From IMG/VR virus record IMGVR_UViG_2778261572_000004: a DNA stretch of 14,480 bases; one strand, written 5' to 3'. Shown here piece after piece: positions 2,214 to 14,195 of this stretch. Position 1 is the first letter of the stretch; each line of letters begins with the position of its first letter. The translations under genes were made by a program, and so were the position numbers. The notes beneath the pieces were generated by a model. That model worked only from the letters and a program-made list of their open reading frames with translations. It did not search any database and was not told where the DNA came from. This DNA is from a virus. Its lineage: Duplodnaviria > Heunggongvirae > Uroviricota > Caudoviricetes.

Positions 2214-2554
2214 CAGTGAGTGACCTCTTCAAAGGTACAGTTAAAATCGGTATACATGGCATTATCCGAAATACTCCACTCCCTGCAGACAACCCGGACG
2301 GTCCTGTTGTATTTTGGCGGACGCCACAAAAAAGCACGCATCCCGGCATGACGGGATAAAAAACTGTCCAGCGCGGCACGGGAATATTCATCTGTGACAC
2401 GAAATACCGGTTTAAACGTTTTCAGATCCGCATTCAGACCACCAGCCCGTCGCTGTTCATATCCGTCACCAAACTTTACCGTAATAACTGATGGCTTTCG
2501 TGTCGTCTCCATCCCCTCACGGGGGATCCAGTTAAAAACTTCAGGCTCAGGCAC
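2213..2554 (-). CDS. M: Minor tail protein M (gpM family)
   Basis: Conserved F.W...GM....PSV..V.FGDGY.QR N-terminal signature of gpM-like proteins. The ORF-track start at 2599 is a TTG. I favour the GTG at 2554-2552, which has a GGAGGA Shine-Dalgarno 7 nt upstream; the in-frame ATG at 2569 is the alternative. Overlaps the 3' end of the tape measure gene. Confidence 0.75.
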   Translation of the reverse strand: MPEPEVFNWIPREGMETTRKPSVITVKFGDGYEQRRAGGLNADLKTFKPVFRVTDEYSRAALDSFLSRHAGMRAFLWRPPKYNRTVRVVCREWSISDNAMYTDFNCTFEEVTH

Positions 2555-5500
2555 TGTACAATCCTCCATCCCGACGCGATGACTGCATAATTGACACAAC
2601 CCTGCTGTCGATCAGATCCACCAGTCCCCTGGCTGAGCGCGCATCTATCTCGCCATTGCTCCCTTGATTCTGAATGCTGATGTGATACACGGGAGAATAA
2701 ACAAATCCACCGCCACCATTCACATTTCCAATGGCCCTGACCCCAAGAGAGCCGTCCGCTGCCCGTGTCAGTGGCATGATTGCTTCAGGCCCGGCCTCGC
2801 CCATCAACCCGGCACCTTTCGCAAAAGCAAAATACGTCGGTGTATCCACAATAGTGTTACTGTAAGCACTCAGATTTGCCGATGTGTAAACACCACCTTT
2901 TGCGTTTGCCACTGCCCCCGAAATCCATCCGCCGACCGTACCAAGCCACCCTCCGGCACCGGAGAGTGATTTCAGTCCGTTAACAATGGCTGCATTCATC
3001 AGAATTTTTGAAACTTCCCGGAGAACTGAACTCCCCCAGTTCCTCCAGTCCACAACATTCCCGGCCAGTGCATCGGAAATATTTGATACCAGCCCGTCCA
3101 TCGTGGAAACGACAGCATCTGCCGCCTGTGAAGCATAATCGGTGGCACTGTCTGCCCAGTTGGTCAGTCCCTCCTGGAGTCCGGCATTCCAGTTATTACG
3201 TAAAGCATCGGCCTTTGCATAATAATTCTGCTGATCGCTGAGACGCTCTTCCAGATATTTTTTATTCAGTTCTTTCTCCTGTTTCCACAGGGCTTCTTCA
3301 ATTTCTCCGGCCTGATACTGTCTCAGCAGCTCGTTATTTTTCTGCTCAAACGTCTGCCGGATACTCCACATTTCCTGGAGTCGTTCACGCATCCGTGAGC
3401 CTTCACCATATCCCAGCAACTGCGCTTCGTCAGATGCCCGGGCACTGGCATTACTGTCCGCCAGACTGCTCTCATACGCAGCAAGCTGCTCACGAATCTT
3501 TTTCTGGTCGATGAGTGCTGCATTCTGCAAAAGCGTTTTTTTCTGCGCTTCTGACAGGGTTGATAATTCGCCCTGACTGACCTGATATTTCATCTTAGCC
3601 AGTTCAGTATTCTGCCCTGCCAGTGCTATCTGTTCTTTTTGCTGTTTAATCAGCCGTTTATAAATATCCTCTGTTTTTTCCGCTTCGGTTTTTTTATGCG
3701 GTTTATTTGCCTGGTTATTTCGCCAGGCATCCAGTGAGTTATTGATATAATTCTGTCTGGCTGTCTGATACGCCTCTCCCACAAAGCCGAGATCATCCGC
3801 AGCATAGCCCAGTCGGGCACGCTCACGCGCTTCCCCCTTCAGGCGGGACAGAGCCAGTTCGCGCTTGCTGTTATTCAGTGCGGTCTGCTGTTTATCATCC
3901 AGGGTTGCCTGTGGTAGCCGTAACGGTACATTCACCAGCCCCTGTCGCTGCTGAAGTAATTCATTACCAAGCCCGAGAAGGCGATTAAACTCGGTATGCT
4001 GCCCATTCATGATCAACAGGGACTGATACGCTTTGTTTTGTTCCGCTGCCTGTTGACGGATCAACGCCACCCGTCGCTCCTCCAGCCTGGCAAGCACATC
4101 CTGAATGGATTGCGCTTTGCCCTGCATTTGAGTGAGACGGGATTGTTCAACTGCCAGTTGATTTGTTGCTTCGGCAAGCCCTTTAAGGATGATTTCAGCA
4201 CCCGAACCACTCTGCGAACTTTCATCAAGCCAACGTTGATAATCAGCAATTTGATTTTTCAGTCCGCGAATTTTTCCTTCCTGTTCGCTAATCAGGCGAT
4301 TTTGTTCCTCCAGTGCCTGCCGCGTCTTTTCCTCATTATCTGACGCTTCAGGAAGCGACATTGCCGACGTTTTCTGGCGAATTTCGTCGATTGTTGCGGC
4401 ATACTGGCGTGCAGATTCTCTGGCCTGCTCCTGATTCTGATACATCGTGTACCAGGCCGCAGCCCCCAGCATGACGAGTCCCGGCACACCACCAACCAGC
4501 CCCAGTGCGCCACTTAATAAACGACTCCCCACTGACGTAACATTATTCAGCGTTGTCTGTGCCGCTGTTCTGGCCGCAATATTACGGGTAAGTGACGCCT
4601 GGGCAGCTGTCAGCTTCGCTTCTGCTGCGGCCTGCCTTTCGGTACCGCGAGCAGCAACAACCGCCTGTTGCGCACGATAAACCGCCGCACGCGCCCTGGC
4701 GGTTGCTATCTGTGTCCCCCGAAGTTGCGCTTCAGCAAGAGCCACTTCGTTTCTGGCTGCAGTAATTAATCCGGCAGTTGCAGATCCAGCAGACGACGCC
4801 ATATTGCCAAAATATCGGGCTACCCCGACGGCAACCAGAGCACCGACAGCGGTTGCCACGGTGTCAATGTTGCCTGCAACACCATTCAGCACCCCGGAGA
4901 GCGCCTTCGTCACTCCGCTTGCCTCGTTCGCACCACCAACCCAGGCCATAAAGGCGTTTTCAACTTTGATTGCAGAGGATGAAACCGTATCAGGCATTGC
5001 TGCATATTCATCACGCAACGCCCCAAGCTGGCTAATCAACGCAGGAACAACCTTATCGGCGGTCAGCTTTCCGTCATCCGCCATGGCCTTCAGATCCTTA
5101 CGGGCAACGCCCATTCCCGCAGCCAGCGCACGAATAACACGATCACCGCTCTCATTCACGGCGTTAAACTCTTCACCACGCAGCACTCCCTGTGCCAGTG
5201 CCTGGCTGAACTGCGTGATCACCGAACTGGCTTCTGCTGCACTGGCGCCGGATAATTTCAGCCCCGTGAAGATCGCCTCGGTGACTTTCAGTACCACCTC
5301 AGAACTGTAACCATACTCTCGCATGGAAGCTGCAGAGCGGGCAAAAAGGCTGGCGTTATCAGAAAAAGCCGTCCCCGTTCTCTGGCTGATTGCCATTAAT
5401 TCACGTTGTGATGCCTGAAAATCATCACTGGACTGCGTGGCCTGCTTCAGACGGGCATTTACTGAACTCCATTCATCCGCAAGAGATATTAGATGTCCAG

Positions 5501-5747
5501 TGGCAAAAGCACCGGCAAATGCCCCCGCCATATTCAGTGCCGAAGACTTCGCCGTATTTATCTGATCCGTCACTTCTGCCAGTGCACGCCGCATTTCACG
5601 GGATGCAGCAGCAGACTGTCGGCCTCCGTTCTGCATGGTGCGGTAGTAATCCTGCCCCATACGCGAAGCCCGGGCGATCTCTGACTGGAATGACCGGGAG
5701 TTTGCCGAGATTTTAATAATCAGTTCACGTAATGTCGCCACACTCAT
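2547..5747 (-). CDS. Tail tape measure protein (about 1066 aa)
   Basis: Very long alanine/glutamine-rich protein with coiled-coil character, a GEEFNAVNE-type N-terminal TMP motif and a glycine-rich hydrophobic C-terminus, in the canonical position between G-T and M. The ORF-track start at 5867 lies inside the upstream gene (different frame) and upstream of a hairpin; the start is placed at the ATG at 5747 (MSVATLRELIIK...), which follows a GGAGA motif. Confidence 0.85.
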   Translation of the reverse strand: MSVATLRELIIKISANSRSFQSEIARASRMGQDYYRTMQNGGRQSAAASREMRRALAEVTDQINTAKSSALNMAGAFAGAFATGHLISLADEWSSVNARLKQATQSSDDFQASQRELMAISQRTGTAFSDNASLFARSAASMREYGYSSEVVLKVTEAIFTGLKLSGASAAEASSVITQFSQALAQGVLRGEEFNAVNESGDRVIRALAAGMGVARKDLKAMADDGKLTADKVVPALISQLGALRDEYAAMPDTVSSSAIKVENAFMAWVGGANEASGVTKALSGVLNGVAGNIDTVATAVGALVAVGVARYFGNMASSAGSATAGLITAARNEVALAEAQLRGTQIATARARAAVYRAQQAVVAARGTERQAAAEAKLTAAQASLTRNIAARTAAQTTLNNVTSVGSRLLSGALGLVGGVPGLVMLGAAAWYTMYQNQEQARESARQYAATIDEIRQKTSAMSLPEASDNEEKTRQALEEQNRLISEQEGKIRGLKNQIADYQRWLDESSQSGSGAEIILKGLAEATNQLAVEQSRLTQMQGKAQSIQDVLARLEERRVALIRQQAAEQNKAYQSLLIMNGQHTEFNRLLGLGNELLQQRQGLVNVPLRLPQATLDDKQQTALNNSKRELALSRLKGEARERARLGYAADDLGFVGEAYQTARQNYINNSLDAWRNNQANKPHKKTEAEKTEDIYKRLIKQQKEQIALAGQNTELAKMKYQVSQGELSTLSEAQKKTLLQNAALIDQKKIREQLAAYESSLADSNASARASDEAQLLGYGEGSRMRERLQEMWSIRQTFEQKNNELLRQYQAGEIEEALWKQEKELNKKYLEERLSDQQNYYAKADALRNNWNAGLQEGLTNWADSATDYASQAADAVVSTMDGLVSNISDALAGNVVDWRNWGSSVLREVSKILMNAAIVNGLKSLSGAGGWLGTVGGWISGAVANAKGGVYTSANLSAYSNTIVDTPTYFAFAKGAGLMGEAGPEAIMPLTRAADGSLGVRAIGNVNGGGGFVYSPVYHISIQNQGSNGEIDARSARGLVDLIDSRVVSIMQSSRRDGGLYSA

Positions 5748-5757
5748 TCTCCGGACG

Positions 5758-5783
5758 AAAAAAAAACCGCCGAAGCGGTTTTT
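5758..5783 (-). terminator. Putative rho-independent terminator downstream of the inserted gene
   Basis: In mRNA sense: AAAAA-CCGC-UUCG-GCGG followed by 9 U. A short GC stem closed by a UUCG tetraloop with flanking A and U runs, immediately 3' of the stop at 5793-5791 and 5' of the tape measure start. Also reads as a weaker hairpin plus T5 on the plus strand. Confidence 0.55.
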
Positions 5784-5790
5784 GTATTCT

Positions 5791-6132
5791 TTAAAGAAGT
5801 CCGGCCTTACGCCTTGCTTCCTGAAGATATTCATCATCCGTTTTTTGTGAAACGGAACTATCTGCATTGCAAATTAAATCACTACCACAATGCTTACATT
5901 TAATAGCCTCTTCTTTGATCAACTCCGCACAGTAAGGGCATTTCTTCATGCCATTGCTTACCATTTGTTGTTCATGTGCCTTCTCATCTCTTTGGATTAC
6001 TAGCGAATGAACCAGAGCAACAATAAAGATCATCGCACCATATACCCACCATCCTAAAAATGAGCGACCTTTGCTTTTCGCAATAATAGCTGGAATTAGT
6101 CCCAAAACTATTGAAATAAGTAAAAATTCCAT
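5791..6132 (-). CDS. Moron-like insert: small inner-membrane protein with two predicted TM helices and a C-terminal CxxC-x(n)-CxxC zinc ribbon; candidate superinfection-exclusion or defence protein
   Basis: 113 aa from the ATG at 6132 (the ORF-track M at 6135 is a TTG): [51 protein letters not shown]...[23 protein letters not shown]... AAGGA Shine-Dalgarno 7 nt upstream. Visibly AT-richer than all flanking genes. Sits between G-T and the tape measure gene, which are normally adjacent. Confidence 0.7.
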
Positions 6133-6149
6133 CAATGTTTCCTTACTTT

Positions 6150-6182
6150 CTCAATAAAATGGGAATAATAATCCAGTCAAGT
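6150..6182 (-). promoter_or_regulatory. Possible sigma70-type promoter for the inserted gene
   Basis: On the minus strand, TTGACT (5/6 match to the -35 consensus) lies in the 55-nt gap after the G-T stop, followed 15-18 nt later by weak -10 candidates (TTTATT / TTATTG), then the SD and ATG. The -10 element is poor, so this is tentative. Confidence 0.25.
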
Positions 6183-6189
6183 GAAAAGA

Positions 6190-6878
6190 TCATCGAGCTG
6201 CAACAAATAATGCCTTCTCAATCTCAGCAAATGGATCTGAGGTGCCTTCTGTCTGCTCCTTCTCCCACTGAAGAAGCGCATCATTCAGTGGCACTTTGAC
6301 CCCCTGCGCACCGTAAACAGCTGAAACAATCTGGGCAGCCCGGATATCAGCCCGTTCGTCCCCCAGCGGGCTGAACCTGTCAAATTCTGCCCACATCATG
6401 ATTTCTGATGCGGACATTTCCCGGCGTAACTCTGACAATGTGCGCCCCATCCTGAGCGCCAGCATCATCAGAAAACGCATCCCCGGAAGCGCTACTTTTT
6501 TTTAACCTCTCCGGCATCACTGATCAGTTCCAGAGACTGGCGAAGAAGCCGGGCATGCACCGGACCATACACGGCAATCACCTGTTCACGATCACCCTCT
6601 GAAAATACGGGTTGCAGCCCGGTATCACATAGAACATCAATGAACAGTTCAACGTCCGCCTCCAGATTTCGGCGGGCACGCTCTGCAACAGATGGCGATG
6701 TATCATCTTCCCTGGCTTTAACGATCTCCTGCCAGCGCAACCAGGCTTCTGCAGAAGGTTCCCGTAACACAACCGTTGCCCCTTCCCATTCAGGCACATC
6801 AACGGTTTTATGGCGAAACCCCGACATCGTTGCCAGTGCCAGATTACGGATATTTTTAGTCATCACACCCATCCTCAT
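6190..6878 (-). CDS. Tail assembly chaperone G-T fusion, produced by programmed -1 ribosomal frameshift near 6495-6504
   Basis: The G frame ends ...GEVKKK-stop (TAG at 6494-6492). The last codons lie in the run GTT AAA AAA AAG. The -1 frame is open from 6501 and continues through VALPG into the 96-aa ORF at 6190..6480 (MRFLMMLALRMGR...). Same gene position and logic as the lambda G/GT frameshift. Confidence 0.8.
6492..6878 (-). CDS. Tail assembly chaperone (gpG-like), unshifted product
   Basis: 128-aa acidic protein directly downstream of the major tail gene and upstream of the tape measure gene, ending in a slippery A-run. The ATG at 6878 overlaps the major tail stop (TAATG); an in-frame ATG at 6863 (MTKNIRNL...) with a GAGG 9 nt upstream is an alternative start. 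Confidence 0.8.
   Translation of the reverse strand: MRMGVMTKNIRNLALATMSGFRHKTVDVPEWEGATVVLREPSAEAWLRWQEIVKAREDDTSPSVAERARRNLEADVELFIDVLCDTGLQPVFSEGDREQVIAVYGPVHARLLRQSLELISDAGEVKKK
6495..6504 (-). other. Slippery heptamer A AAA AAG (8-A run) for the G-T -1 frameshift
   Basis: Plus-strand T8 at 6496-6503; in mRNA sense GTT AAA AAA AAG TAG. Shifting -1 at A AAA AAG enters the downstream ORF frame (codon tops congruent to 0 mod 3). Confidence 0.8.
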
Positions 6879-7582
6879 TAACTGACGGTTACAGTGCAGG
6901 AAGTGGAGGTCACCTTGTTAACCGGGCTTGCAGAATCAGAAATCTCGCAGGTATACGCACCCGCATCACCGGATACTGCTGATGCCTTGCTGAACGTTGC
7001 CGCTGTCTGTCCGGAAACAGGAGAACCACCTTTTTTCCAGGCATAAGAATAAGGCGGCACACCACCCGCAGCCTCAACCACCATTTCGAGTTTCGCTCCG
7101 GCAGAAACCTGCAGCGTGCTGTTTAAATCGACCTTCACTTTCAGCGGCTCTGTCGTCAGCACAGGTTTACCTTTCAGACGCAGGGAAAACGTTGCAGCCA
7201 CAACACCATTGGTTCCTGCAGACCAGGTATGCTGACGCACCTCTGCCATAAAGGTAAATCCGTTGCCTGACGGAAAAATAACTTTAAAGCCATACGTGGT
7301 GTCATTGTCATAGGCACTGCGCAACGCGTTCTGGGCAGCGTTGAGATAAAAGTTTCCTGACATGGAAATCTCTGAAGCAGCCCCAAGACCGTTAATATTT
7401 TCCTGCTCAACAGAACACAGCGTAGTGACATCAATATCCTGCTTTTGTCCAGCGGTAAACTGCACTTCTTTGATTGTACAGCTCAGCCCAAGAAAGCTGG
7501 CAGAATCCAGGGTTTCTGCTGTTACCGGTGCAGACGAAATCATAATTTTCGTCAGTTGCGAACGCTCAAAATTAGAGGACAT
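6878..7582 (-). CDS. Major tail protein with C-terminal Ig-like (Big_2-type) domain
   Basis: 234 aa from the ATG at 7582 (MSSNFERSQLTKIM...), which has an AGGAG Shine-Dalgarno 6 nt upstream. The C-terminal ~80 aa (VKVDLNSTLQVSAGAKLEMVVEAAGGVPPYSYAWKK...YTCEISD...) looks like a bacterial Ig-like domain, as on lambda gpV. The in-frame ATG at 7633 is an alternative but would place the hairpin and U-tract inside the coding sequence. Confidence 0.8.
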   Translation of the reverse strand: MSSNFERSQLTKIMISSAPVTAETLDSASFLGLSCTIKEVQFTAGQKQDIDVTTLCSVEQENINGLGAASEISMSGNFYLNAAQNALRSAYDNDTTYGFKVIFPSGNGFTFMAEVRQHTWSAGTNGVVAATFSLRLKGKPVLTTEPLKVKVDLNSTLQVSAGAKLEMVVEAAGGVPPYSYAWKKGGSPVSGQTAATFSKASAVSGDAGAYTCEISDSASPVNKVTSTSCTVTVS

Positions 7583-7594
7583 ACTCGTCTCCTG

Positions 7595-7620
7595 AAAATA
7601 AAAAACCCGCCAGCGGCGGG
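7595..7620 (-). terminator. Putative intrinsic terminator / attenuator between the neck genes and the major tail gene
   Basis: In mRNA sense: CCCGCC-GCU-GGCGGG (6-bp GC stem) followed by UUUUUUAUUUU. Lies in the intergenic gap just upstream of the major tail gene's SD. Confidence 0.5.
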
Positions 7621-7641
7621 TAGGTAAAATCATTAACGACC

Positions 7642-7986: not shown

Positions 7987-8429
7987 TTACTTAAGACCTC
8001 ATCAATAGCCTGATTCATTCGCTGTATGGCAACCTGCGCCGCCAGCTCCTCTGTCGTATCGAAAGCCGGGCGAATGAATGGATGCGCGGGCATGTTTATC
8101 GTTCCCAGCTCCACAAAGCGCCAGTAAAACGCATTTCGGGGATCGCTGGCTTTCATGCTGTTATCACTGTTTCCGGTTCGCAGGTTCCGTCCGCGAATGT
8201 GGACACCCGAGATAATTTCCCCCCGACGCTTTGAACGCTGCGTGAGAACAACCACATTTTTCTTCAGTTTCCCGGTTCGCTCCGGTGCACGTTCAACAAC
8301 TGCATCCCGCATAACTTCAGCACCGGCACGGGTGGCATCGCGCAGAACCTTATTGTTTTCTGCCCTGCTGAGCGTCTCCAGATCCCGTGCAATATCCGCC
8401 AGGCCGGAAAAATCAAGACTGAAATCCAT
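7983..8429 (-). CDS. HK97 gp10-family neck / tail-completion protein
   Basis: ORF containing ...NAFYWRFVELGTINMPAHPFIRPAFD..., typical of the HK97 gp10-like family. The ORF-track start at 8432 is a GTG; the ATG at 8429 overlaps the upstream TGA (TGATG). Confidence 0.75.
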   Translation of the reverse strand: MDFSLDFSGLADIARDLETLSRAENNKVLRDATRAGAEVMRDAVVERAPERTGKLKKNVVVLTQRSKRRGEIISGVHIRGRNLRTGNSDNSMKASDPRNAFYWRFVELGTINMPAHPFIRPAFDTTEELAAQVAIQRMNQAIDEVLSK

Positions 8430-9093: not shown

Positions 9094-9136
9094 CAGAAAC
9101 TCCTGCCCGCAACACTGTGCGGGCATAAAAACCGCA

Positions 9137-10360
9137 TTACGCTGCGGCTTTCTGGCGGGTTGCAGCCCCAATTTTCATCAGCTTAATCGCCTGAGAATCC
9201 ACCAGCATACCGCCGGTTCGTTTGGTGGTATAAAAGCCCACAAACGGTTTGTTGGTGTACGGGTCACGCAGGATACGGGTACCGATGCGATCAACGATGG
9301 TATAGCCGCGTTTGAAGTTACCAAACGCAATGGCTTTTGCATCGGCGGCAATATCCGGCATCTGCTCATTTTCAACGATGCCATACCCTGCCAGAGAAGA
9401 AGGCTGCCCCAGCTCAATACCCGGGCGCCACAGATAATTTCCGTCGTTATCCTTCAGCAGACGAATGGCAAACAGGCTGCTGTTGTTCATCATAAACTTC
9501 GCGCCGCTACGGTGCGCCTTGCGCAGGGTGTAAATCAGTTTAATGATCGCATCGGCAGTCACGCCGGAAGCCGCACCGGAAGCAATGTGCTGAAGTTTGC
9601 CAAACGCACGGGTCTTGTCATCTTCATCGGTGGACTCGTAAGCCAGAAAACCTTTTGGTTTTTTGCTGCCGTCGCCACTGGTAAAGGCAATTTCTTCCTG
9701 TTCGGCAAATTCCAGCGCCAGCTCACTGTTGATCCAGTCTTCCACATTGAAGAAAGCGTCATCGAGCATTTTCTGGGTGGCCTGCGGGTTGCCGTAGATT
9801 TCCCCCATAAAGGGTTCAATCAGACCCAGTTTTGATGTGGCGGTTTCCGGACGAGCATCCGTTTCCCCCACCCATCCGGACGTTGTGCCGCCCAGATTCA
9901 CCAGTTTTTTATAATCCGAGCCACCGAGGGTGATCACAGTGGCTTCCTGGCGCATCACCACCTCATCTTTCAGCAACGTCAGAATGGTGCGGTCCAGTTC
10001 TTCCGGAATGGCATAACCACCATCTTCATCATTGCCCACCTGCATCGCCTTACGCTCAAGCTCACGCAGGCCGTCTTCACGCCCCTTGCGCATAAATCCG
10101 ATAAACGCTTCTTTATGTTCACCGGCAACTTTATTTTGCGTGCCGCCTGCCGGACGCTTGACTTCAGCCAGTTCAGCTTCAAGATCGCTTTTCAGATTTT
10201 CCAGTTCAGCCAGTTTTCCGTTGAGGGTTTCCACTTCACCAGCAAGTTTTCCCTTTTCCTGCTCGATCGCGTCGATACGTTTGTCGTTTTTTTCCTTAAA
10301 ATCGTCAAACTTCCGCTGCAACTCCTGCGCGACCTGTTCCACATCTTTAACATCAGCCAT
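9137..10360 (-). CDS. Major capsid protein, HK97 fold, with N-terminal coiled-coil delta (scaffolding) domain
   Basis: 407 aa. The N-terminal ~100 aa is strongly charged and heptad-like (MADVKDVEQVAQELQRKFDDFKEKNDKRIDAIEQEKGKLAGEVETLNGKLAELENLKSDLEAELAEVK), followed by a capsid-like body. AGGAGA Shine-Dalgarno 6 nt upstream. Immediately downstream of the prohead protease with no separate scaffold gene. Confidence 0.9.
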   Translation of the reverse strand: MADVKDVEQVAQELQRKFDDFKEKNDKRIDAIEQEKGKLAGEVETLNGKLAELENLKSDLEAELAEVKRPAGGTQNKVAGEHKEAFIGFMRKGREDGLRELERKAMQVGNDEDGGYAIPEELDRTILTLLKDEVVMRQEATVITLGGSDYKKLVNLGGTTSGWVGETDARPETATSKLGLIEPFMGEIYGNPQATQKMLDDAFFNVEDWINSELALEFAEQEEIAFTSGDGSKKPKGFLAYESTDEDDKTRAFGKLQHIASGAASGVTADAIIKLIYTLRKAHRSGAKFMMNNSSLFAIRLLKDNDGNYLWRPGIELGQPSSLAGYGIVENEQMPDIAADAKAIAFGNFKRGYTIVDRIGTRILRDPYTNKPFVGFYTTKRTGGMLVDSQAIKLMKIGAATRQKAAA

Positions 10361-12437: not shown

Positions 12438-14195
12438 TTAAAGCGAGCGGATACCAACGCTGACCAGATGCTCAGACAGATCCGGCTCCGGTTCACCGCC
12501 ATTGACCAGCATCCGGCTCATTGCTGTAAACATCGCAACAGGACCGTCGATTTTGGCTTCCGGCGTGGATTTGTTCGGGAAGATATTGTCGTTTTTGTCC
12601 GGTTTTACCGTAACGTTAGACATCATCCAGTTCATGACCGGGTGATTGCTGTGGTGAAAACGCCCGGCATAGACCAGTGATTCCGTTTCCTTCATGGCCT
12701 CTGACAGATTGCGGACCGTCTGCGGAACTTCCACCAGCGGTATACCTTCTTCAGCCAGCGCCAGACTGAACTGCATTGCGCTCCACGGGTCAAATCCCAG
12801 TTCCCTCAGGTTTTCACCGCCAATCCATTCCAGCAGGTCACTTTTTATCTGAGTATGATCGATAACATCACCATCCGTCAGGATGAGTTTATCCATCTCC
12901 GCCCATTTCCGGTAAAGTTCTGCCTGCTGCCGTGAGCATCGTTCCAGCCGTCCTTCCGGAAGCCAGAATTTAAAATCGGCATGAACATGCCCGTTATCCG
13001 TTCGCCAGAGTTTTGCCGCCGCACAGATATCAATCTTATGAGCAAGGTCGACGCCGACCCACATGGGATAGGTTTTCAGCTCATGCTGTGGAGCAATGTA
13101 TTCGCACTTCTCCCACTTAATCATATCCATCCAGGCAGATTCGGCAGTGACCCACACATTCATGTGTTTGGTAAAAAAATTCACCCGCGCAGAGACCTGT
13201 TCTTTCGCTTTTTTCGCCAGACGACGCAGATCATCCCAGCGTTTACAGATGCCCAGGCCCGGATTCGCTTTCTGCCAGACCGTTTCATCAAACGGATCAT
13301 CTCCCTCATCGAGCGTGTAAATGATCGCAAAGTAGGAGTCGTCTTTTACTGCGCCCTCCACGTTGCTGTTATAGCCACGCAATACCTTGATGGCGTAATC
13401 GCGTTGCTCGTAACAAATCCCTTCCTTGTTAAAGCCCGCCGTGGTGATACCAAATAACAGGGACTGCAGACGGGCACCGGTTGCCGTTTCCAGAACGTCC
13501 CACACGTCGCGGGTTTTATGTGCATGCAGCTCATCAATAATGGCACAGTGGATGTTCAGACCGTCCAGGTTGTTTGCATCCGAGGAAAGCGGTTCAAATT
13601 TTGATGCGCTCTGCTCCTGGTAAATCGCCAGCTTGTTGAAATCAAACAATCGCCCGAGTGTCGACCGGGCTTTTCTGACCATATTTTTGGCGTCTTCAAA
13701 CACAATTCTGGCCTGGTCACGCGTGGTTGCGGCTGAATACACCTCAGCACCGCCTTCACCATCTGCCCCCGTCATATACAGGCCGATACCCGATGACAGG
13801 GTTGATTTTGCGTTTTTACGGGCGACTTCGTTGTACGCCGTACGGAACCGGCGCACCATCACCGGACGTCCGCTGCCATCGCTGCGCATGACAACTTCCC
13901 CGGTCTCTTCATTGACCAGCGGAATGACAAAACCAAAAATATTAATGAGGATAAATACATGCCAGTCCATCAGTTCAATGGGCTGGCCTGCCAGCGCCCC
14001 TTTTACATGGGGCACAAATTTGTAGAAATTCAGGATGTGCTGCGCACGGGGTTCACTGAAATAAATCCCCCGCTCTTCGCCGTACTTCAGATCATCAAGA
14101 AAACGCTGGCAGGCCAGACGGACAAATTCGCCAGCGACAATTTCTCCTGCAACAACACGTTCGGCGTAGCGGATCCCGTCAGCCACTTTTGCCAT
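12438..14195 (-). CDS. Terminase large subunit
   Basis: 585-aa ORF immediately downstream of the small-subunit gene (ATGA overlap at 14195), with size and position typical of phage TerL (ATPase N-terminal region, nuclease-like C-terminal region). Confidence 0.9.

Follow-up and report, generated by a model that had tools for sequence, protein, structure and literature searches.

The hairpin with a UUCG loop and a U-tract that stands between the tail chaperone gene T and the tape measure protein (TMP) gene in the 14,480-nt stretch of DNA analysed here (the window) is probably, at roughly 60%, a resident and conserved terminator-type element of the HK97/lambda-like tail module, and not part of the cargo of the moron that precedes it. 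Such an element would stop polymerase that has not been modified by Q, whereas Q-modified polymerase would read through, and insertions just upstream of it would be harmless, which would make the junction a hot spot. It is apparent that the hairpin is present at the equivalent site in insert-free genomes, and that low-GC inserts of several kinds all lie upstream of it. A GC hairpin with a U-tract is kept ahead of the TMP gene across Enterobacterales and in one Pseudomonas phage, with compensatory changes in the stem.

Gene context of the hairpin

All of the genes in the window lie on the − strand: those for terminase, portal, protease, capsid, the head-tail proteins and the major tail protein, followed by G, T, a small low-GC ORF, TMP, M, L, K and I. 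The features that flank the hairpin are the following.

6190..6480, − strand: gene T, coding for the T part of the G-T tail assembly chaperone (PF06223/DUF4035) and situated upstream of the junction
5784..6224, − strand: DNA specific to the moron allele, comprising the diverged 3′ end of T, the T-moron spacer, the moron ORF and an AT-rich 3′ spacer
5791..6132, − strand: moron ORF of 113 aa, start ATG 6132, 38% GC, encoding a small membrane protein with a zinc-ribbon domain (PF13248)
5749..5752, − strand: Shine-Dalgarno sequence of the TMP gene, GGAG, 5 nt past the U-tract and 7 nt ahead of the GTG start
2547..5741, − strand: TMP gene, start GTG 5741

A reading of this DNA made earlier from its letters (the sequence-only reading) had placed the hairpin inside the late operon just before the TMP start, a placement that was confirmed, the end of the U-tract being 5 nt from the TMP Shine-Dalgarno sequence. 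GTG 5741 is the start assigned by PGAP in the 100%-identical locus of Escherichia coli TUM1881; the depositors of PhiR49_2 chose the equivalent start, and relatives have ATG at the matching codon. The program-made TMP ORF begins instead at ATG 5867, in a reading frame that crosses the hairpin, and was rejected as the real start.

Two further observations concern neighbouring genes. The run at 6496-6503 (T8 on the + strand, A8 on the − strand) falls in GUU AAA AAA AAG UAG, which ends gene G and contains the slippery heptamer A AAA AAG. From this heptamer onward the T frame is open, as fits a programmed −1 frameshift making the G-T tail chaperone fusion. The terminase ORF of the window is intact (12438-14195). 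In the TUM1881 prophage (L126 8480-25360), the large terminase gene is split by a segment of approximately 17 kb with its own integrase, capsid, protease, portal and terminase genes and an IS3 element, which may be a satellite or a second phage inserted in the terminase gene.

Sequence, folding and terminator anatomy

The hairpin consists of three parts.

5779..5783, − strand: A5 tract 5′ of the stem, which can pair with the first five U residues to give a stem of 9 bp
5767..5778, − strand: GC core CCGC-UUCG-GCGG with a cUUCGg tetraloop (CCGC 5778-5775, UUCG 5774-5771, GCGG 5770-5767), −5.4 kcal/mol
5758..5766, − strand: U9 tract directly 3′ of the stem, 7, 8 or 9 residues long in 80 close relatives

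On the gene-sense (−) strand, positions 5783..5758 read AAAAA-CCGC-UUCG-GCGG-UUUUUUUUU (U9), exactly as first described, and the + strand (5758-5783) is A9-CCGC-CGAA-GCGG-T5. The hairpin does lie immediately 3′ of the moron, as had been claimed: the moron stop codon TAA occupies 5793-5791, and the A-tract begins 7 nt past it. The stem had been given as only 4 bp. This is correct for the GC core, which is weak (−5.4 kcal/mol for the 12 nt by themselves), but the full stem is not confined to 4 bp, because the A5 tract can pair with the first five U residues. The folding calculation that had been proposed as a check was performed on the 26-mer and gave a hairpin of −10.8 kcal/mol with a 9-bp stem (4 G-C and 5 A-U pairs) and a z-score of −4.0 relative to dinucleotide shuffles, 1 of 200 of which was as stable. 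The A5 tract lies on the AT-rich insert side of the junction, and insert-free relatives have only AA there; the GC core is unchanged between the moron-bearing and moron-less E. coli phages examined. This core is shorter than in most terminators and, at 4 bp and −5.4 kcal/mol, the weakest among the relatives examined, and the termination efficiency of the hairpin may be low.

The anatomy is that of a canonical intrinsic terminator, in agreement with the sequence-only reading. A GC-rich stem with a short loop (CCGC-UUCG-GCGG, extendable to 9 bp) is followed directly by a U run (U9, 5766-5758), the site is intergenic, on the sense strand and at the end of a transcription unit, and compensatory changes among homologues were found in a loop-anchored alignment of individually detected hairpins (see below). 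Termination at this site is suggested by its anatomy together with its conservation.

Terminator-like patterns, loosely defined, are common in the window, with 25 sites as compared with 13.9 ± 3.8 expected in shuffles. A strict criterion was therefore set, which asked for a GC core of 4 bp or more, six or more T among the 9 nt that follow and a ΔG of −5 or below; it gave five sites on the sense strand and none on the antisense strand. The main argument against a chance pattern comes from the comparison with relatives described below. Three of the five are intergenic, namely 5783-5758 and two others, at 7621-7595 (ahead of the major tail gene) and 9147-9123 (over the capsid stop codon).

7595..7621, − strand: second terminator-like hairpin, ACCCGCC-GCU-GGCGGGU then UUUUUAUUUU, in the gap that separates the tail completion gene from the major tail protein gene, which starts at 7582
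9123..9147, − strand: third terminator-like hairpin, CCGCAGCGUAAUGCGG then UUUUUAUGC, its loop containing the stop codon of the major capsid gene (9139-9137)

The second hairpin is stronger than that at 5758-5783 and has counterparts in nearly all of the 34 distant loci described below and in HK97 (6692-6719). A program-made ORF from 7633, the gene start in the PhiR49_2 record, would cross it.

A bidirectional terminator was also considered for 5758-5783, in view of the A9/T5 symmetry and the presence of the loose pattern on both strands. The hairpin resembles the classical E. coli cUUCGg bidirectional terminators in its GC stem, UUCG loop, U-tract of 7-9, upstream A-tract and near symmetry. 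Unlike them, it faces no convergent gene on the + strand, all of the neighbouring genes being co-directional, and its + strand version fails the strict criterion. The assignment was rejected.

Close relatives with and without the insert

When the junction was compared with phage genomes by megablast, 11 E. coli phages matched both flanks but were without approximately 400 bp. In PhiR49_2, T is followed by ...TGAGTCAACATAACCGCTTCGGCGGTTTTTTTTCGTCCGGAGAATGAGTGTGG, that is, by the same hairpin, U-tract, Shine-Dalgarno sequence and start, and by no insert. In an alignment of the two alleles, the moron-bearing one diverges from approximately 6224, inside the last codons of T, to the A-tract, and homology is regained at AACCGCTTCGG; the segment 5784..6224 takes the place of approximately 60 nt present in insert-free relatives. 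As homology resumes at the hairpin, the hairpin lies outside the inserted DNA. It is also unaltered next to variants of the moron at 88% and 84% identity. The 88%-identical copy, in E. coli 2014C-3075 (L002 1507-1946), has deletions and no annotated CDS and is likely a pseudogene; the hairpin and TMP leader beside it are intact.

All 80 of the IMG/VR contigs recovered by means of the T protein (L005-L084) carry CCGCTTCGGCGG followed by 7-9 T; the moron is present in 10 and absent from 70. The T-tract of these near-identical relatives is 7 long in 16, 8 in 59 and 9 in 5, and never shorter than 7; in the window and in TUM1881 it is 9. The invariance of the hairpin across this set was dropped as evidence, because the flanking 5′ region of TMP is equally invariant, which makes it uninformative. 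Among 5,426 complete E. coli genomes, the moron was found in 46 and the insert-free junction, matched over at least 80% of its length, in 856, a figure that may count moron-bearing genomes with the two flanks joined, so that insert-free genomes number at least approximately 810.

The inserted DNA

Morons, in the definition of Juhala et al. (2000) as given in PMC3594210, are extra DNA with promoter and terminator elements of their own, and the same source names HK97 gene 15, between the tail chaperone and tape measure genes, as the first application of the concept. The segment studied here is extra DNA between genes that are adjacent in relatives, being absent, at approximately 400 bp, from the 11 phage records and from PhiR49_2. 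Its base composition is deviant: the insert, which lies just ahead of the hairpin, is 36.9% GC as compared with 53% in its flanks, and inserts in relatives are 34-43% GC in surroundings of 48-55%. A terminator inside the inserted DNA was not found, the hairpin being outside the insert and identical in insert-free genomes.

The promoter that the sequence-only reading had placed upstream of the gene is likewise putative: a promoter scan listed no sigma-70-like promoter between the T stop codon and the moron start. TTGACT can be seen by eye upstream of the moron, at 6180-6175, but is not conserved in the 88% and 84% variants; a TATTAT/TATGAT hexamer at 6170-6165 is conserved, with a weak −35 that overlaps the T stop codon. 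Since the insert ends before the hairpin, the mobile unit comprises at most a promoter and a gene.

The zinc-ribbon membrane protein (PF13248) turns up repeatedly at the T/TMP junction: in prophages of Enterobacterales, in Salmonella phage FSL SP-016 and, with 37% identity, in Pseudomonas phages (window 5791-6132; L089, L090, L092, L093, L095, L111, L128 and L130). Its gene is unannotated in Pseudomonas phage vB_PaeS-D14C, and a homologue is named 'immunity to superinfection' in one Pseudomonas phage record. By analogy with HK97 gp15, a role in superinfection exclusion is plausible. The YebO/gp15-like moron of a Pantoea prophage (L115 1784-2095) ends in ...HLEEARKKAGL, similar to the C-terminus of the zinc-ribbon moron (window 5794-5830), and the codons of the two differ synonymously. 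Unrelated morons therefore have a common C-terminal tail just upstream of the hairpin, which could be a mosaic joint or a functional motif.

Distant relatives and covariation of the stem

A 26-sequence alignment of the T protein yielded 38 loci, in which each species is represented by one genome and T is 47-67% identical; for 34 of these the start of TMP could be located. A strict-criterion hairpin with a U-tract was found within 60 nt upstream of the TMP start in 29 of the 34, as compared with a background of 0.032 per 60 nt. The remaining strict sites in the 34 loci numbered 58 on the sense strand, mostly ahead of the major tail gene or between it and G, and 13 on the antisense strand.

The GC hairpin and U-tract lie 15-23 nt upstream of the TMP start whatever the junction contains. 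The gap between T and TMP is 28-35 nt in 14 loci and 9 nt in one Burkholderia locus, giving 14-15 empty junctions; those of 28-35 nt, in Yersinia, Enterobacter, Kluyvera, Pantoea and Kosakonia, are made up of the hairpin and a Shine-Dalgarno sequence. A homologue of the zinc-ribbon moron occupies the junction in six loci, and other inserts, of 277-1127 nt, are present in approximately 14. At least eight unrelated types of insert precede the hairpin, and their products include lipoproteins, YebO-like proteins (homologues of HK97 gp15) and a TPR protein. In the Pseudomonas phage vB_PaeS-D14C, which has a 37%-identical zinc-ribbon gene between T and TMP, the corresponding sequence is GCCGCC-UUCG-GGCGGU, U6, AUUGUCCGGAG and AUG, with GGAG before the start.

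The stems vary among loci (CCGC/GCGG, CCCGC/GCGGG, CCCACC/GGUGGG, CCGGC/GCCGG, GCCCGC/GCGGGC, ACCGCC/GGCGGU and others). In a loop-anchored alignment of 16 distinct hairpins with 4-nt loops, both-sided changes were seen at five of seven stem pairs. Paired cells amounted to 92.9%, as compared with 35-54% when the partner columns were slid, a percentage inflated by the anchoring of the alignment on individually detected hairpins; as anchoring favours it, the counts of pair types are the informative part. The covariation score was 0.506, versus 0.17 in shuffles, 0 of 500 of which reached that value. For 27 TMP upstream regions aligned plainly with MAFFT, RNAalifold gave no pairs because stems of unequal length were aligned out of register, and it was replaced by hairpin detection in each locus and the loop-anchored alignment.

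Comparison with HK97 and other known systems

The record of HK97 (NC_002167) has an annotated putative terminator at 8398-8422, between the gene 15 moron and the tape measure gene, 16. Its sequence is GACCCGCUAUCAAGCGGGUUUUUUUUAUGGGUGAAAAUAUG, and its position, ahead of a homologous TMP start, matches that of the hairpin described here; the TMP N-termini are MATLRELIIKI in HK97 and VATLRELIIKI in the window. In both phages a GC stem with a 4-nt loop and a U-tract (U8 in HK97) is followed by a Shine-Dalgarno sequence and a start codon, and in both it comes after a moron for a small membrane protein. The two differ in the stem (CCCGCU/AGCGGG in HK97, CCGC/GCGG here), in the TMP 5′ leader (AUGGGUGAAAAU in HK97, CGUCCGGAGAAUGAGU here) and in the moron itself (YebO-like gp15 in HK97, a zinc-ribbon protein here). 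The HK97 hairpin adjoins a gene that its record labels a moron product, whereas the data presented here indicate that the hairpin is resident at the junction. The HK97 terminator block is similar to the block of hairpin and leader found in insert-free loci such as L108-L121. HK022 was tried as an insert-free comparator for HK97; as its TMP N-terminus is not homologous and the hairpin is absent, it has no bearing on residency.

Further putative terminators are marked in the HK97 record downstream of the portal and capsid genes, on either side of the major tail gene (ahead of it, and between it and G), before I and before J; the strict criterion recovers five of the seven. That at 5192-5213, just past the major head gene, may be compared with the hairpin at 9123..9147 in the window. 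At the I/J junction, where HK97 has morons and a terminator, no such terminator site was found in PhiR49_2, and the idea of a resident terminator thus does not extend to every junction.

Rho-independent terminators have also been predicted between the structural genes of the antiterminated operon of phage L/P22 (bioRxiv 10.1101/2020.10.05.325894), and two proposals were made there: partial termination, or the blocking of spurious transcription begun without antitermination. Intrinsic terminators between late structural genes are thus common to phage L/P22, HK97 and the window. As far as was found, the present case is unlike those examples in that the conservation of one site has been followed across genera and states of insertion. 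Since the HK97 record marks several of them, terminators within late operons are already recognised, and the hairpin at 5758-5783 is, putatively, an ordinary Rho-independent terminator-type element of that kind.

Proposed mechanism and alternative explanations

In lambdoid phages, antitermination by Q turns on the late operon (PMC2629481). Both PhiR49_2 and the TUM1881 prophage have a gene for a Q antiterminator, located ahead of their lysis and structural genes; Q was thus seen in the closest relatives, outside the 14.5-kb sequence of the window itself, and on that ground read-through of the hairpin is expected in lytic growth. Polymerase unmodified by Q, coming from a moron promoter or from spurious starts in the lysogen, would be released at the U-tract, so that the moron transcript would end at the hairpin and TMP and the distal tail genes would stay silent in the prophage. 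In lytic growth, Q-modified polymerase from the late promoter would pass the hairpin, perhaps with some loss. A promoter and gene inserted just upstream of it would form a self-contained and harmless transcription unit, and a terminator already standing at the T/TMP junction would explain why that junction is a moron hot spot.

One consideration counts against this mechanism. If Q-modified polymerase ignores the hairpin and insert-free phages have no upstream promoter to insulate, there is no evident selective reason for its retention in them. This same conservation of the hairpin in phages that have no lysogenic promoter upstream favours a partial attenuator acting in lytic growth as well, which would provide less mRNA for TMP and the distal tail proteins, needed in few copies per virion, than for the major tail and chaperone proteins. 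The capsid and major tail genes, which are highly expressed, likewise have hairpins of this sort around them, and partial termination is one of the two proposals in the literature cited above. Antitermination of the lambda Q type is, however, processive and generally suppresses intrinsic terminators, and a similar hairpin stands directly ahead of the major tail gene, which needs high expression. Attenuation is compatible with a resident terminator, but we consider it rather unlikely.

The sequence-only reading had taken the hairpin to be the moron's own terminator in a promoter-gene-terminator cassette. Under that explanation the hairpin arrived with the moron, and insert-free genomes have lost the promoter and gene while keeping the terminator. 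The layout agrees with the classical definition of a moron, and the equivalent hairpin in the HK97 record adjoins a gene labelled as a moron product. The exact sequence CCGC-UUCG-GCGG is, in addition, common to zinc-ribbon-moron loci of E. coli, Leclercia, Enterobacter, Superficieibacter and Salmonella phage FSL SP-016, so that joint exchange of hairpin and moron by recombination is conceivable. Against this, insert-free E. coli genomes with the hairpin outnumber moron-bearing ones approximately 18-fold, and the hairpin is present in the insert-free junctions of the five other genera named above, that of Yersinia having the 5′ flank ACAUAACC(C)GC in common with insert-free E. coli. It follows at least eight unrelated types of insert, one of them a reverse-oriented gene for a 251-aa lipoprotein between T and TMP in a Buttiauxella prophage (L086 1794-2832), which, being reverse-oriented, the hairpin cannot terminate. 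In Klebsiella phage KP12, where the zinc-ribbon gene lies outside a tail module, neither the hairpin nor any U-tract was found after the gene. With the hairpin present in insert-free and distant relatives, and homology resuming at the hairpin itself, the cassette interpretation was not supported, and arrival of the terminator as cargo appears improbable. In the Buttiauxella locus, an AT-rich sense-strand hairpin with T7 was observed after T, and the resident GC hairpin ahead of the TMP gene.

A role in mRNA stability or processing is slightly less probable again. Rather than working chiefly by polymerase release, the hairpin would then shield the upstream V-G-T or moron message from 3′-to-5′ exonucleases once it had been cleaved, or would give an RNA derived from the moron a 3′ end that binds Hfq. 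In favour of this, the stem-loop is stable and stands between two cistrons, and the several hairpins of this type are all on the sense strand. The stem is, however, short, Rfam gave no match at gathering thresholds over the whole window, and a protective hairpin needs no adjacent run of 6-9 U, yet the U-tract is kept in 29 of the 34 distant loci. A pure RNA-stability role is inadequate, because the conserved U-tract stays unexplained.

Control of TMP translation, by a long-range helix that encloses the hairpin and joins the TMP Shine-Dalgarno sequence to the 3′ end of the preceding ORF (coupling) or by a U-tract acting as an enhancer that binds ribosomal protein S1, is very improbable: a 71-nt fold does pair CCGGAC (5803-5798) with GUCCGG (5756-5751), insert-free PhiR49_2 can form an interrupted 11-bp helix over the Shine-Dalgarno sequence, and the U-tract is close to that sequence (5 nt), but when more of the flanking sequence is folded the helix does not have the lowest energy, and the outer helix was rejected as a means of sequestration, since in 27 loci shuffling of the upstream sequence did not leave the Shine-Dalgarno sequence more accessible (mean z +0.22).

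Implications

What is modestly new here is the suggestion of a moron hot spot at the T/TMP junction, with a terminator that is resident there. In a broader form, the T/TMP terminator would be a resident 'punctuation mark' of HK97/lambda-like tail modules and at the same time a landing pad, just upstream of which promoter-bearing foreign genes, such as those for superinfection-exclusion-type membrane proteins and lipoproteins, survive preferentially; we regard this as an even bet. Were it true, the terminator of the founding example of a moron, HK97 gene 15, would be part of the recipient phage instead of the mobile unit, and morons at T/TMP would be promoter-gene units that borrow an existing terminator. 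For annotation, the gain is a corrected set of limits for the moron, the kind of hairpin being already marked in the HK97 record.

If the terminator is functional, it would provide a reason for the repeated gathering of lysogen-expressed membrane-protein genes at the T/TMP junction. It would also offer a simple system, based on insert-free and insert-bearing phages with an identical hairpin, in which to study the role of terminators within late operons, a question that is open in the literature.
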